DNA of 38,427 nt from an uncultured Clostridia bacterium (GCA_948528155.1 CAOSZT010000002.1:1-38427), one strand, 5' to 3'. Counted from the stretch's first letter, positions 2,170 through 38,389 are shown. Numbers and translations: made by a program. Notes: generated from the letters alone by a model not told the origin.

Positions 2170-2204
2170 TTGACTTTTATGCCTAAAATACATTAGGAAA
2201 AATG
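2170..2204. repeat. candidate left copy of the island-flanking direct repeat (attL-like)
   Basis: TTGACTTTTATGCCTAAAATACATTAGGAAAAATG resembles 38336..38389 (TTGACCTTT-[19 nt]-TATGGCTAATACATTACAAAACAATG). It lies between convergent gene ends. Confidence 0.35.
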
Positions 2205-2238
2205 ACATCTATTGATATATACCAAATAAATAAAAAAT

Positions 2239-2269
2239 AATAGATAGCAACTAATCAATGCTATCTATT
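2239..2269. terminator. bidirectional hairpin terminator between convergent genes
   Basis: Perfect 11 bp stem AATAGATAGCA / TGCTATCTATT with a 9 nt loop, A-run upstream and T-run downstream. Confidence 0.6.
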
Positions 2270-2511
2270 TAATCTTTAACTAAATTTTTTAAGTTATTGT
2301 AATCGACTTCTAATATTTTACAAATAATAATCAGTTCAAAATCTTTTAATATAACTTTACCATTAATAATTTTATATAAATGCCATCTATCTATATTAAT
2401 TCCTCGTAATTGTAATTGCTTACACAAATCTTCTTTTGTCATATTTTTTTCACGAAGAGATTTTTCAATAAAATCTCCTGCAACATTTGATTTTCCATTA
2501 TATTTTCTCAC
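2269..2511 (-). CDS. XRE-family helix-turn-helix transcriptional regulator (80 aa)
   Basis: MTKEDLCKQLQLRGINIDRWHLYKIINGK is a typical HTH_XRE core. This is the only credible minus-strand gene, divergent from 2664. Confidence 0.75.
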   Translation of the reverse strand: MRKYNGKSNVAGDFIEKSLREKNMTKEDLCKQLQLRGINIDRWHLYKIINGKVILKDFELIIICKILEVDYNNLKNLVKD

Positions 2512-2541
2512 AACAAAATTCTCCTAAAAATTACATATATA

Positions 2542-2571
2542 TTGATTTTATTACAAATTCTATGATATAAT
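2542..2571 (+). promoter_or_regulatory. sigma-A type promoter (TTGATT-18-TGaTATAAT)
   Basis: -35 at 2542..2547. Extended -10: TG at 2563-2564, TATAAT at 2566..2571. Confidence 0.45.
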
Positions 2572-2596
2572 GTGGTCAAGTCAACCAATAATATTT

Positions 2597-2625
2597 TTGA
2601 CAGTTAGAATTTTTTTATGTAAGAT
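2597..2625 (+). promoter_or_regulatory. sigma-A type promoter (TTGACA-17-TAAGAT)
   Basis: Consensus -35 at 2597..2602, 17 nt spacer, TAAGAT at 2620..2625, upstream of ORF 2664. Confidence 0.5.
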
Positions 2626-2663
2626 AATTTAAAATATAGAAAAAATGATAAGAACAATTAAAA

Positions 2664-3473
2664 ATGTATTATACATTGGGAGAGAATATGAAAGAAAAGA
2701 TTATCCAGATAGTGGTTTTTAGCAGAAAACAAGAATTAGCAGAGAAATTTAAGTATGCAATAAATTGGGAATCAAGATATTTTAGGCAAGAAACTAAAAT
2801 TATAAATGATATTGAAGAACTTAGGAAAGTAAAAAAAGTAAATATACTTATAGTTCTTATTGATGAGCAAATGAATTGGGAATTTATTGAATTTAACAAA
2901 GAAGTCTTAAATAGCAAAACTAAAGAATGTTTTATTATTGATATGCAAAAAAGAACTATAACAAAGAATGGTATAACAGAATTATTAAGAGATAGCCAAG
3001 ATGATAAAGCACTAGCATTTAAAATAGTATATGATTATTATATAGAGTTAAAGAAAAAGAATGAAAAATCACAATTATCATATAATTACAAAAAACTAAA
3101 AAAAACTATGAATAAGTTTGAACAAGGCGATAACAAAAGTATTATACTAGATAAAATAGATGAAGTTGTGATGGAGAATAGACGTAATAATTCTGCAGGA
3201 TATGAAAAATTAAAAACAATGATATATTTTTCTATTGTAAATAAATTAGAGGTTGATAGTGAAAAAAATTATAATTACTTTCATAAAGCTATTGCAAGGA
3301 TTTTTAATGAAAATGTAACTGTTATTTTAAATGAAATTAATAGTACCATAAGAATAATAAGAAAAAGAAAGAAACAATTAAAAATACAAGAATATTTAGA
3401 GGAAATAAAAGGAAAACAAATAATAGAACAGATTATATTGATAAGTAAAATAGTAGAGAAAAGTATGAATTAA
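2664..3473 (+). CDS. hypothetical protein, possible regulator; likely start ATG 2688
   Basis: GGGAGAG precedes the ATG at 2688 (MKEKIIQIVVF..). The N-terminal ~100 aa weakly resemble a receiver-like alpha/beta fold (NILIVLIDEQMN). Not verifiable by eye. Confidence 0.55.
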   Translation: MYYTLGENMKEKIIQIVVFSRKQELAEKFKYAINWESRYFRQETKIINDIEELRKVKKVNILIVLIDEQMNWEFIEFNKEVLNSKTKECFIIDMQKRTITKNGITELLRDSQDDKALAFKIVYDYYIELKKKNEKSQLSYNYKKLKKTMNKFEQGDNKSIILDKIDEVVMENRRNNSAGYEKLKTMIYFSIVNKLEVDSEKNYNYFHKAIARIFNENVTVILNEINSTIRIIRKRKKQLKIQEYLEEIKGKQIIEQIILISKIVEKSMN

Positions 3474-3511
3474 TAATCTATAAGAAATTTTTTAGAAAGG
3501 AGCGATTAATT

Positions 3512-3709
3512 ATGACAATGCAATTATGGGAACATTGGGATAATATGTCAAATGAAGAAATACTTAGAGAATTATTATTGATGATATTAATAACAATAGT
3601 AATAGGAATAGTTACAGGATTATTGACATATTTAAAGAATAAATACAAAGATAAAGTAAATGAATCAAATAGTAAAGCGTTAAAATTTATTTTTAACAAT
3701 ATTCTATAA
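3512..3709 (+). CDS. small membrane protein (65 aa)
   Basis: AAAGGAG RBS. One hydrophobic helix, LLLMILITIVIGIVTGLLTYL. Confidence 0.55.
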   Translation: MTMQLWEHWDNMSNEEILRELLLMILITIVIGIVTGLLTYLKNKYKDKVNESNSKALKFIFNNIL

Positions 3710-36609: not shown

Positions 36610-36648
36610 AAATAATAAAGGTAAATATAATATTGCTATTTTTTTGTA

Positions 36649-36718
36649 TTTTACATAATTTTTTGCAAAAACCTTGCAAAATCCTGCAGTATACTTTTTG
36701 ATTTTTCTATGGTACAGT
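36649..36718 (+). promoter_or_regulatory. TTGCAAAA-box promoter cassette, copy 4 (upstream of xis-int)
   Basis: TTTTACATAATTTTTTGCAAAAACCTTGCAAAATCCTGCAGTATACT, 17 nt spacer, TGGTACAGT (hexamer 36713..36718). Confidence 0.6.
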
Positions 36719-36732
36719 ATTATTAAATACCA

Positions 36733-36759
36733 AAAACCTTAAAACAAAACCTTAAAAAC
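36733..36759 (+). repeat. tandem direct repeat AAAACCTTAAAAC / AAAACCTTAAAAAC in the xis leader
   Basis: Two adjacent copies. The AAAACCTT core is also part of the box (CAAAAACCTTGCAAAA). Confidence 0.7.
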
Positions 36760-36800
36760 TCATTTTACTTAAATTTAACCAGATGGAGGAAAATGAGTTT

Positions 36801-37031
36801 ATGAATGAAAAACTAATTTATACAGTTCAAGAAGTAGCAAAAATATTACATTCTAGTCCAAATTACATATATTCACTAATAGAAAAAGGATATTTACCTG
36901 CAATAAAATTAAGTAGTATAAAAATCTTAAAATCTACCCTTGAAAAGTTTTTAATTGAAAATGAAGGAAATGACTTGTCGGATATTAACAATATAAGAAA
37001 AATAAAAACAGAAAAAGAGGAAAAAAACTAA
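36801..37031 (+). CDS. xis: excisionase-type (MerR-like HTH) DNA-binding protein; probable start ATG 36801
   Basis: LIYTVQEVAKILHSSPNYIYSLIEKGYLPAIKL is the typical excisionase-family HTH. GGAGG 11 nt upstream of 36801. Immediately precedes int. Confidence 0.7.
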   Translation: MNEKLIYTVQEVAKILHSSPNYIYSLIEKGYLPAIKLSSIKILKSTLEKFLIENEGNDLSDINNIRKIKTEKEEKN

Positions 37032-37035
37032 AATA

Positions 37036-38307
37036 ATGGGGCAATTAAATATAAAAAAAAGGGGAAAGGTTTATCAATATCAATTTGAAATTGCACGAGT
37101 TAATGGTAAAAGAAAATATATTAATAAATCTGGCTTTAAGACAAAAGCAGAAGCAATAGAAGAAGGAAATAAAGCATATACTGAATACTTAAATGCAGGT
37201 GTTCCATTTAAAGAATGTTCAATTTCATACAGTGATTATTTAGATTATTGGCTAGAAAATTATTGTAAAACAAATCTAAAATACAATACAATTCAAGCAT
37301 ACAAAACGCTTATAAATAAATACATTAAACCTAAATTAGGAATGTATAGATTGTCTACTATAACAAGTGTTACTTTAAATTCTTTTATTATTGAACTATG
37401 TAACCAATACGATTTTTCAAGATCTTATTTTGGAAACATATTAAAAGTTGTAAAAGGCTCTTTTAGAGAAGCTTGTAATTTATATGGATTCTTGAAATAC
37501 AATCCTGCTATAACATTAAGGTTACCAAAATTAGACAAAATTGAAGAAGAAGTAAAACATTTATATACACAAAAAGAAATTGATAACATTCTAAAAAGAT
37601 TTTCTAAAAATGATACATTTACTTGTGCTTTTTTGACTTCTTGTTTTACAGGAATGAGAACAGGAGAAGTATGTGCTTTAACCTGGAATGATATTGACCT
37701 AAAAAATGGAATTATTAGTGTAAAGCATAATGTTTATGATAAGCCTAAAGATGAAAATGGAAGATGGTATATTGGGAGTACAAAAACGCCTACTGGAACA
37801 AGACATATATATGTATGTCAAACTTTATTAAATGCTCTGAAAAATTATAAGAAAAAGCAATCATATTTGAAACAGGTATATGGAAGTGCATATAAATATT
37901 ATCATTTAGAAGATGTTAAAAATGAATATGGTAAAGTGGTAGAACAAAGGATTGTAAAAAATAAAGAAAATGTTTTAACATTTGATACAATAAATTTAGT
38001 CTTTACAAGAGAAGATGGTTCTTATGTAGGTACAGATTTAACTAAATACCCTTTTAAAATTATCCACGAGGAATTAGGAATAAAAAAATGTAGATTTTAT
38101 GATTTAAGAGGTAGTTATGCAACTAAAATTTTAACAAATGGTGTTGAGATTAGAGATGTTGCTGATATTTTAGGACACAGGAATATAGAAACAACAGAAA
38201 ATTATTATATTTCAAGTACAGAAGATTCAAGAAAAAGAGCTAATAAAGTATTTGAGGAAATTACACACTCAAATATAATTAATGAAATAATAAAATATCA
38301 AGTATAA
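37036..38307 (+). CDS. int: tyrosine recombinase / integrase with N-terminal arm-type DNA-binding domain
   Basis: N-terminal KRGKVYQYQFEIARVNGKRKYINKSGFKTKAEA (Tn916-Int-like arm-binding domain). Catalytic-domain motifs TGMRTGEVCALTWNDID, FYDLRGSYAT and LGHRNIETTENYY (R...R / H-x-x-R...Y). Confidence 0.9.
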   Translation: MGQLNIKKRGKVYQYQFEIARVNGKRKYINKSGFKTKAEAIEEGNKAYTEYLNAGVPFKECSISYSDYLDYWLENYCKTNLKYNTIQAYKTLINKYIKPKLGMYRLSTITSVTLNSFIIELCNQYDFSRSYFGNILKVVKGSFREACNLYGFLKYNPAITLRLPKLDKIEEEVKHLYTQKEIDNILKRFSKNDTFTCAFLTSCFTGMRTGEVCALTWNDIDLKNGIISVKHNVYDKPKDENGRWYIGSTKTPTGTRHIYVCQTLLNALKNYKKKQSYLKQVYGSAYKYYHLEDVKNEYGKVVEQRIVKNKENVLTFDTINLVFTREDGSYVGTDLTKYPFKIIHEELGIKKCRFYDLRGSYATKILTNGVEIRDVADILGHRNIETTENYYISSTEDSRKRANKVFEEITHSNIINEIIKYQV

Positions 38308-38335
38308 AGGAATTTTTTTATTCCTTTATTTTTTA
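38307..38335 (+). terminator. rho-independent terminator after int
   Basis: AAGGAAT-tttttt-ATTCCTT followed by TATTTTTTATT. Confidence 0.6.
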
Positions 38336-38364
38336 TTGACCTTTAAAAAAATATATTATATAAT
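38336..38364 (+). promoter_or_regulatory. outward-facing consensus sigma-A promoter (TTGACC-17-TATAAT)
   Basis: TTGACC at 38336..38341, exact 17 nt spacer, TATAAT at 38359..38364. Followed by the 8 bp inverted repeat AATACATT-acaaaac-AATGTATT (38371..38393). Confidence 0.6.
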
Positions 38365-38389
38365 ATGGCTAATACATTACAAAACAATG
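38336..38389. repeat. candidate right copy of the island-flanking direct repeat (attR-like)
   Basis: TTGACCTTT-[19 nt AT-only insert]-TATGGCTAATACATTACAAAACAATG, versus 2170..2204. Confidence 0.35.

Follow-up and report, generated by a model that had tools for sequence, protein, structure and literature searches.

A 36-kb xis-int region of an uncultured Clostridia bacterium is probably the accessory and recombination half of a larger integrative conjugative element

The window analyzed here is the whole stretch 1-38427 of CAOSZT010000002.1 (GCA_948528155.1), 38.4 kb of DNA with a GC content of ~23% from an uncultured Clostridia bacterium. Bases 2170-38389 contain ~47 co-oriented open reading frames (ORFs), and all substantial ORFs but one are on the plus strand. 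The window is composed of the end of a restriction gene, a short stretch of variable cargo, a local regulatory block, three long operons, and a terminal xis-int pair. We propose, with a probability of about 85%, that the window (~1-38427) is the distal, right-hand part of one large integrative conjugative element (ICE) of uncultured gut Clostridia that inserts site-specifically in the 3' end of secA. We are equally confident that the 36-kb region is the accessory and recombination half of this ICE and that the conjugation module lies to the left of the window. The main features are as follows; the functions given are those predicted from matches to protein families.

1-563, plus strand: 3' end of hsdR (Pfam EcoEI_R_C, 141-563), within the type I restriction-modification (R-M) cargo of the ICE; frameshifted in this lineage
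612-2147, plus strand: variable cargo, comprising an 83-aa protein (612-863) and pentapeptide-repeat, DUF6897-like, and Cdd1/HhH proteins (Pfam)
2269-3709, mixed strands: local regulatory block with an Xre helix-turn-helix (HTH) protein, a 269-aa protein, and a 65-aa membrane peptide
3723-3758, plus strand: motif copy 1, with promoter TATACA-17-TGnTAAAAT (3752-3780) and a leader hairpin plus U-run (3800-3849, -23.0 kcal/mol)
3865-15528, plus strand: operon 1, with signal-peptide and membrane proteins, a PP-loop enzyme, DarA_C, a split sortase, and many ORFans
15548-15583, plus strand: motif copy 2, with promoter and a leader hairpin plus U-run (15619-15682, -31.8 kcal/mol)
15698-26858, plus strand: operon 2, with an adhesin, a frameshifted phrog_5696 gene, ArdC, a nucleotidyltransferase (NTase), LPD11, ORFans, and an Xre HTH protein
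26874-26909, plus strand: motif copy 3, with promoter and a terminator-like leader hairpin plus U-run (26941-26986, -15.9 kcal/mol)
27011-36609, plus strand: operon 3, with a SpoVG protein, ORFans, a methylase, a paralogous pair, a sigma70-r4-like protein, and a non-coding gap
36661-36696, plus strand: motif copy 4, directly upstream of xis-int, without a leader hairpin
36783-37031, plus strand: Xis (Pfam HTH_17)
37036-38307, plus strand: tyrosine integrase (Int) of the Tn916/Tn1549 type (Pfam Arm-DNA-bind_4, Phage_int_SAM_3, Phage_integrase)
38308-38397, plus strand: first 90 nt of the right arm of the ICE, identical in eight other contigs, which extend another ~185 nt, into the 3' end of secA

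Each of the window's four large gaps between genes holds a copy of a 36-nt motif, TTTTGCAAAAACCTTGCAAAATCCTGCAGTATACAT, which heads all four operons, xis-int included. The motif also occurs 6.9 kb to the left of the window (L009:2199; loci fetched for comparison are cited by L numbers) and, in relatives of the element, heads the operon that encodes a ParB-like protein, the relaxase, and the type IV secretion system (T4SS). Other copies in relatives are located at L027:4679, L046:18151, and L019:20124. The motif contains two TTGCAA(AA) boxes 11 bp apart that overlap a weak -35 element and precede an extended -10 element. All 56 instances, representing 20 sequence variants, are on the gene strand, and GTGyTAAAAT follows each of them at a fixed distance. 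Most simply, the motif would be an activator or repressor site plus promoter. A general scan for sigma-70 promoters shows no enrichment over shuffled sequences in this AT-rich DNA and was used solely to place the motif-linked -10 element and one terminator. The motif has no match in IMG/VR. It includes the sequence ATCCTGC, which may resemble the MOBP nic consensus.

The same operator/promoter stands at every operon including xis-int. Therefore, excision, transfer, and accessory functions are probably switched on together. Regulators encoded by the ICE would act through the motif on all operons and on xis-int. A homologue of the 269-aa protein of the local regulatory block (38% identity) directly precedes a motif copy in L019. 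In L027, an HTH protein is encoded ahead of the motif copy of the ParB/relaxase operon, and that encoded by 26508-26858 is 31% identical to it. The 269-aa protein was also considered as a paralogue of a REC-like regulator of the relatives; BLASTP detects no similarity between the two.

The strong leader hairpins behind motif copies 1-3 are situated between the promoter and the first ribosome-binding site of operons of 10-12 kb, which suggests promoter-proximal termination that must be overcome; control by attenuation or antitermination may be involved. In relatives, the ParB/relaxase operon has a similar hairpin behind its motif copy. Breaks in contigs of this ICE tend to fall at the motif and at the secA core described below. 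At L011:4004 (GCA_949014615.1, CARLIP010000024.1), the position of a motif copy coincides with a stretch of N and a subsequent Illumina adapter (...ACACGACGCTCTTCCGATCT), an artefact of scaffolding in this public metagenome-assembled genome (MAG).

The left flank of the window is provided by a 73-kb MAG contig, CAONMW010000008.1 (GCA_948491035.1; 73,004 bp). The comparison covered two stretches, 1-11493 (L009) and 27036-38397 (L004), in which the contig matches the window at 99.97-100% identity. The contig runs 9.1 kb further to the left and carries the frameshifted hsdR, hsdS, hsdM, small genes, a gene for a 393-aa protein, and an M23 peptidase gene. Every contig that carries the flank genes left of ~2170 runs on into the region to the right of that position. 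The 393-aa protein has hundreds of relatives, and in each fetched locus that contains the M23 gene, the 393/394-aa gene, and upstream DNA, T4SS genes directly precede the pair. They encode VirB4 (AAA_10/P-loop_TraG with TraC-like), TrbL_4 (VirB6), two T4SS_pilin proteins, and a VirD4-type coupling protein (T4SS-DNA_transf, TrwB_AAD_bind, and TraG-D_C). Further upstream in these relatives are genes for a 553-aa relaxase, a ParB-like protein, an Xre HTH protein, a REC-like protein, another HTH protein, and TopB. The relaxase encoded by L027:7614-9275 matches NCBIfam MobP3 with E = 4.9e-40 and a score of 138 bits, just below the cut-off of 150, and its orthologue in L065 has a precomputed match to Pfam MobL.

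The genes at the beginning of the 36-kb region are found in the same context. A scan of JGI metagenomes returned relatives at 49-70% identity, which were used for synteny. In L046, homologues of 3865-4896 (75%) and 4910-5917 (79%) lie behind a motif copy ~7 kb after the T4SS, and in L019 and L041, homologues of the 83-aa gene (612-863) follow the T4SS. From left to right, the ICE would thus consist of the conjugation module, the variable cargo (the frameshifted type I R-M genes and small genes), the three long operons, and xis-int. The sequence-only reading, an earlier reading of this DNA, had offered as its second alternative that the region is the accessory half of a bigger ICE with the T4SS to the left, in which case its guess of the attachment sites would be wrong. 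The left-flank contig, the synteny of relatives, and the shared motif support this alternative. That reading had also named a T4SS module immediately upstream of the window, with no junction at ~2170, as an argument against an island; such an arrangement is probably present, with the one difference that ~9 kb of type I R-M cargo lies between the tail of the T4SS module and nucleotide 1.

Two observations concern the genes of the conjugation module. The 393-aa protein (L009:720-1901, ~8.4 kb left of the window) has no Pfam match; its family is conserved at 58-94% and always follows the M23 hydrolase, and a candidate ParA/MinD-like segment, GVAGTEKHIGATT, was recognized by eye only. VirD4 is encoded by one 718-aa ORF in the L065 lineage (L065-L067) and by three ORFs (271, ~230-246, and 117-178 aa) in the lineages of L017-L019, L027, and L050-L064, which are yet found in several different hosts.

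The sequence-only reading had remarked that the window encodes no P-loop NTPase, and a search of all six frames for [AG]xxxxGK[ST] confirms that there is no Walker A motif. The window lacks P-loop NTPases because the ATPases VirB4 and VirD4 sit in the left half, where they are seen in relatives and where we infer them for this copy, and because the bulk of HsdR is also upstream; only the C-terminal end of HsdR is encoded in the window.

The ends of the element are likewise inconsistent with an island that begins at 2170. The repeat copies previously proposed to flank it amount to a 9-nt match, AATACATTA, at 2187 and 38371. Of 1000 segments of 121 nt drawn at random, 41% equal or exceed this match to the right end, which is chance level. 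Position 2170 itself lies in the gap between two convergent genes, beside a hairpin, and is no junction.

The right junction can be located with the eight other contigs that encode exactly the same Int. Their sequence is common for ~270-275 nt past the int stop codon, beyond which all eight enter ...TGTGGAAGTGGnAAGAAnTAnAA..., coding for CGSGKKYKNCCGK*, the C-terminal SEC-C motif of SecA. On the far side of the secA 3' end, these contigs have prfB or else further islands inserted there. All eight junctions share one secA 3' core; therefore, the element is site-specific for the secA 3' end. The right junction, with the attR core, is ~150 nt beyond the end of the window, inside the secA 3' end. 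A pair of arm-type repeats, GTTCGCAA-N3-GTTCGCAA, is located at +124 and +135 after the int stop codon, outside the window. The secA core would be where Xis and Int excise and integrate the element as a whole.

The left junction, with secA core and arm repeats, is seen in relatives only. In three related lineages, the left end can be followed from secA, through the core and the GTTCGCAA arm repeats that are also found at the right end, to a second integrase of the Tn916 type, an Xre repressor, and a Phage_rep_org_N protein. The lineages with a visible left end include those reached through the TopB representatives P0139, P0156, and P0223, all of them lineages other than that of CAONMW010000008.1. 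The left end of this copy may be of a similar kind, with or without a second integrase. In CAONMW010000008.1, 25.2 kb of sequence lies upstream of L009, and a left part arranged as in relatives would take up ~24.8 kb as far as the secA stop codon. The fit suggests that the ICE in question would be ~72-73 kb in length. Two relatives extend ~80.5 kb from the secA stop codon to the end of the contig, and we estimate the size of the ICE at roughly 70-80 kb.

The secA 3' end is an insertion hot spot, as seen at the left ends of L050-L068 and in the right flanks of L006-L008. L007 contains two secA cores with a DUF2000/ToxN islet between them. In L008, an ICE of the window type is followed by another integrase-led element with a gene like that of the left integrase and co-varied arm repeats (GTTGCCGA/GTTGCCAA).

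Several findings weigh against the proposal of one large, functional ICE. For this very copy, the T4SS and the relaxase are placed by synteny, and the relatives used have a nucleotide identity of 79-87%. All eight other contigs are identical to the window up to 38397 and then diverge from it; its final 30 nt (38398-38427, GGTTAGTTTTTATTATAGTATAAAATGAAA) match nothing else among the fetched loci. In every relative with a visible left end, the second integrase, 46% identical to the Int of the window, is located beside secA, and a fusion of two once-separate elements is possible. In addition, three genes of this copy (hsdR, the sortase gene, and the phrog_5696 gene) are split by frameshifts and VirD4 is split in several relatives, so some copies may be decaying.

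The second integrase bears on the question whether the 36-kb region is a separate mobilizable element with its own Xis and Int, accreted to the right of a T4SS-bearing ICE with its own left integrase and mobilized by that ICE. The T4SS part could then move alone, tandem islands do occur at the secA hot spot (L007 and L008, above), and the window part has Xre-type regulators of its own. We nevertheless think this origin very unlikely. From 9.1 kb left of the window (L009) to its right end, neither an internal secA core (with as many as 8 of 35 positions mismatched) nor a GTTCGCAA arm repeat occurs, and the left repeat proposed for the island is at chance level. The four operons of the window, including xis-int, share their motif with the relaxase/T4SS operon, and homologues of operon 1 genes follow the T4SS in other lineages. 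Moreover, right ends of the window type and the left end of relatives have an identical 19-nt arm repeat, which is what the two arms of a single attP should show. The region also contains no relaxase according to Pfam, NCBIfam, and PHROGs, and no oriT was found in it.

The sequence-only reading had suggested a search for an oriT mimic in 35825-36315. This 490-nt gap contains no ORF of at least 60 aa and has two adjacent hairpins with 14-bp stems, one perfect (36063-36094) and one 93% complementary (36103-36134), which both look like AT-rich terminators. We detect AT-rich hairpins only; comparison with the DNA close to the relaxase gene in relatives shows no similarity.

The headline of the sequence-only reading, a self-contained 36-kb mobilizable element that borrows a T4SS, is therefore not supported: there is no att core or arm-type repeat at or near 2170, the operator motif is shared with the T4SS/relaxase operon of relatives, and homologues of the first genes of the region sit straight after the T4SS in related elements. 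The gene content that it gave for the xis-int island holds; the boundaries do not. The false lead of a giant element free of transfer genes and obliged to hitch-hike is thereby removed. The one large ICE that we propose instead is not a hitch-hiker but an apparently undescribed lineage, ordinary in kind.

The frameshifts raise another question, namely whether the region is part of the ICE but belongs to a lineage whose copy is decaying and no longer transmissible. The hsdR gene (L009:6325-9664, ending at position 563 of the window) is called as 622 + 507 aa, in comparison with 1112 aa for the intact gene in relatives, and is split by a 1-nt insertion relative to L019. The sortase and phrog_5696 genes are also frameshifted, and VirD4 is in three ORFs in several related lineages, in comparison with the intact 718 aa in L065. 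The hsdR frameshift is present in every sampled contig that spans the gene and is therefore a real mutation rather than an assembly error; being common to all sampled copies, it is also older than their spread, which argues against decay as the end of transmission. The right ends of the ICE are 99.97-100% identical beside prfB genes that are only 72% identical, and 37 indexed blocks of the collection contain this exact Int. One exact TopB protein is also found beside SecA proteins that are 61-71% identical. Identical ICE ends and TopB next to diverged host genes indicate recent movement between distinct hosts; the MAG records are from mouse, human, deer, and rabbit gut samples. We therefore regard an inactive lineage as rather unlikely. 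The recent spread argues against wholesale inactivity, and partial decay is possible. In our preferred reading, the ICE lineage is common, apparently undescribed, and moves between hosts with housekeeping proteins only 61-72% identical.

The individual genes of the regulatory block and of the three operons are as follows.

2269-2511, minus strand: Xre HTH (Pfam HTH_3, weak match)
2664-3473: 269-aa protein
3512-3709: 65-aa membrane peptide
6804-7634, plus strand: PAPS-reductase-like PP-loop enzyme (Pfam)
9374-10378, plus strand: DarA_C (Pfam)
11566-11901 and 11882-12148, plus strand: sortase, split over two frames (Pfam)
15698-19090, plus strand: thioester (TED)/SpaA adhesin, ends in LPRTG (Pfam)
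19205-19895, plus strand: frameshifted phrog_5696 gene, function unknown (PHROGs)
19902-20924, plus strand: ArdC (ArdC-N, zincin MPTase; Pfam)
21518-22654, plus strand: Pol-beta NTase (Pfam)
22655-23992, plus strand: LPD11 protein (Pfam)
26508-26858, plus strand: HTH_3 (Xre HTH) protein (Pfam)
27011-27637, plus strand: protein with two SpoVG domains (Pfam)
31997-32755, plus strand: N6/N4 DNA methylase (Pfam)
35128-35484, plus strand: sigma70-r4-like protein (Pfam)

Pfam bears out the inventory of regulators, surface proteins, sortase, ArdC, NTase, PP-loop enzyme, Xis, and Int given by the sequence-only reading, with one correction: it had spoken of methylases in the plural, and only that encoded by 31997-32755 is supported, the second candidate being the frameshifted phrog_5696 gene. 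About 35 ORFs of the window have no Pfam match. Contact between donor and recipient would be favored by the sortase together with the LPxTG thioester adhesin, whereas the tasks of protecting and establishing the incoming DNA would fall to ArdC, DarA_C, LPD11, the NTase, the PP-loop enzyme, the orphan methylase, and the ~35 ORFans.

Integrase, excisionase, Xre repressors, methylase, and DarA_C and ArdC-type domains also occur in phages, and a few PHROGs of unknown function match ORFs of the region, as could be expected of a defective prophage or the remnant of a phage satellite with xis/int and anti-restriction genes. Such an origin is barely credible. Neither Pfam nor PHROGs detects a family of capsid, portal, terminase, tail, or lysis proteins, the motif has no IMG/VR match, and the region is contiguous with the tail of a T4SS module. 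The lack of relaxase, T4SS, and virion genes in the region, also claimed earlier, is confirmed by Pfam and by PHROGs and NCBIfam searches of 37 otherwise unassigned ORFs. Megablast of both halves of the window against the PLSDB plasmids gave no match, which also counts against a prophage or phage satellite. PADLOC run on 10 ORFs of the window returned weak, generic matches at the level of the fold only, and neither Rfam (at the gathering threshold) nor a tRNA scan found anything in the window.

Among known systems, the proposed ICE most closely invites comparison with the ICEs and plasmids of Bacillota that have a MOBP/MOBL relaxase and a VirD4-type coupling protein, such as Tn1549/Tn5252-like ICEs and pLS20-type plasmids. 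Similar to these, its genes are co-oriented, a tyrosine integrase and Xis are at one end, and ArdC, methylase, and adhesin are accessory content; in relatives, the MobP3/MobL relaxase, VirD4-type coupling protein, VirB4, VirB6, cell-wall hydrolase, TopB, and ParB-like protein also correspond. It differs in its insertion in the secA 3' end, at the codons of the SEC-C motif, in the 36-nt motif at every operon, and in the second integrase of the relatives at the opposite end. In addition, it has no nucleotide similarity to any PLSDB plasmid, and the MobP3 score of the relaxase (138 bits) is under the cut-off.

The recombination and regulation end of Tn916/Tn1549 has the layout orf7-orf8-orf5-xis-int. 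The right end of the window is similar in that Int has Arm-DNA-bind_4, SAM_3, and catalytic domains, an HTH_17 Xis is encoded immediately upstream, and a small sigma70-region-4-like protein and small ORFs are ahead of xis. The best PDB match of the Int is 6EN0 (also 6EMZ), annotated as 'Int protein', a remote match with E = 3e-10; we take these entries to be the Int of Tn1549. Unlike Tn916, which uses AT-rich targets with low specificity, the element has all eight junctions in the same secA 3' core, and its relatives encode a MobP3/MobL relaxase rather than one of the MOBT/Rep_trans type and a VirD4-type rather than an FtsK/TcpA-type coupling protein.

The polyvalent proteins of conjugative elements and phages contain a set of domains that Iyer et al. 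(2017, PMC5512222) interpret as early-phase effectors that counter restriction by the host. ArdC-N, zincin MPTase, DarA_C, LPD11, Pol-beta NTase, and methylase domains belong to the window, and a ParB-like gene is upstream. However, the domains are on separate small genes in long operons rather than in one giant protein, and most neighboring ORFs match no described LPD family. Cell-wall-anchored mating adhesins are known from conjugative systems of Gram-positive bacteria, for example PrgB of pCF10 (review PMC12857230). The window resembles these in having an LPxTG surface protein beside a sortase on a conjugative element, but the adhesin has a thioester domain and SpaA repeats rather than the polymer adhesin domain of PrgB, and the sortase ORF is split.

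A bolder reading, which we consider less likely than not, is that of an undescribed family of ICEs of gut Clostridia, one that is very widespread and unusual in three respects. First, two paralogous integrases of the Tn916 type may flank attP in the excised circle, with identical arm repeats, and target the conserved codons of the SEC-C zinc finger of secA. Second, at least six copies of one 36-nt operator/promoter may drive an element-wide regulon, in which the promoter-proximal terminator hairpins of the long operons would imply control by antitermination. Third, the 36-kb set may be an 'unbundled polyvalent protein' arsenal, whose ~35 ORFans, many of them acidic-tailed, may include new anti-restriction or establishment factors. 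The accessory half is a compact pool of ~35 uncharacterized proteins beside known anti-restriction domains and could be mined for anti-defense functions, and the repeated operator/promoter is a simple handle on how such an element is switched on.

Eighteen of the 47 ORFs (4910-35021) encode a C-terminal tail rich in Glu and Asp, with at least five D/E in the final 10 residues (e.g., EEEREENEQD and KTEEEEEEER). Most of these tails fall just before or overlap the purine-rich ribosome-binding site of the next gene, and D+E amount to 17.8% overall. The sole paralogous pair of the window consists of two adjacent ORFans, 32709-33539 and 33571-34086, which are 36% identical over 162 aa. The otherwise identical JGI contig Ga0531673_0003402 (L001) lacks 12.2 kb (19595-31751 of the window), from ArdC through the ORF that precedes the methylase, and joins 19594 to 31752 across a 16-nt alignment overlap. 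Therefore, the whole 12.2-kb block is dispensable.

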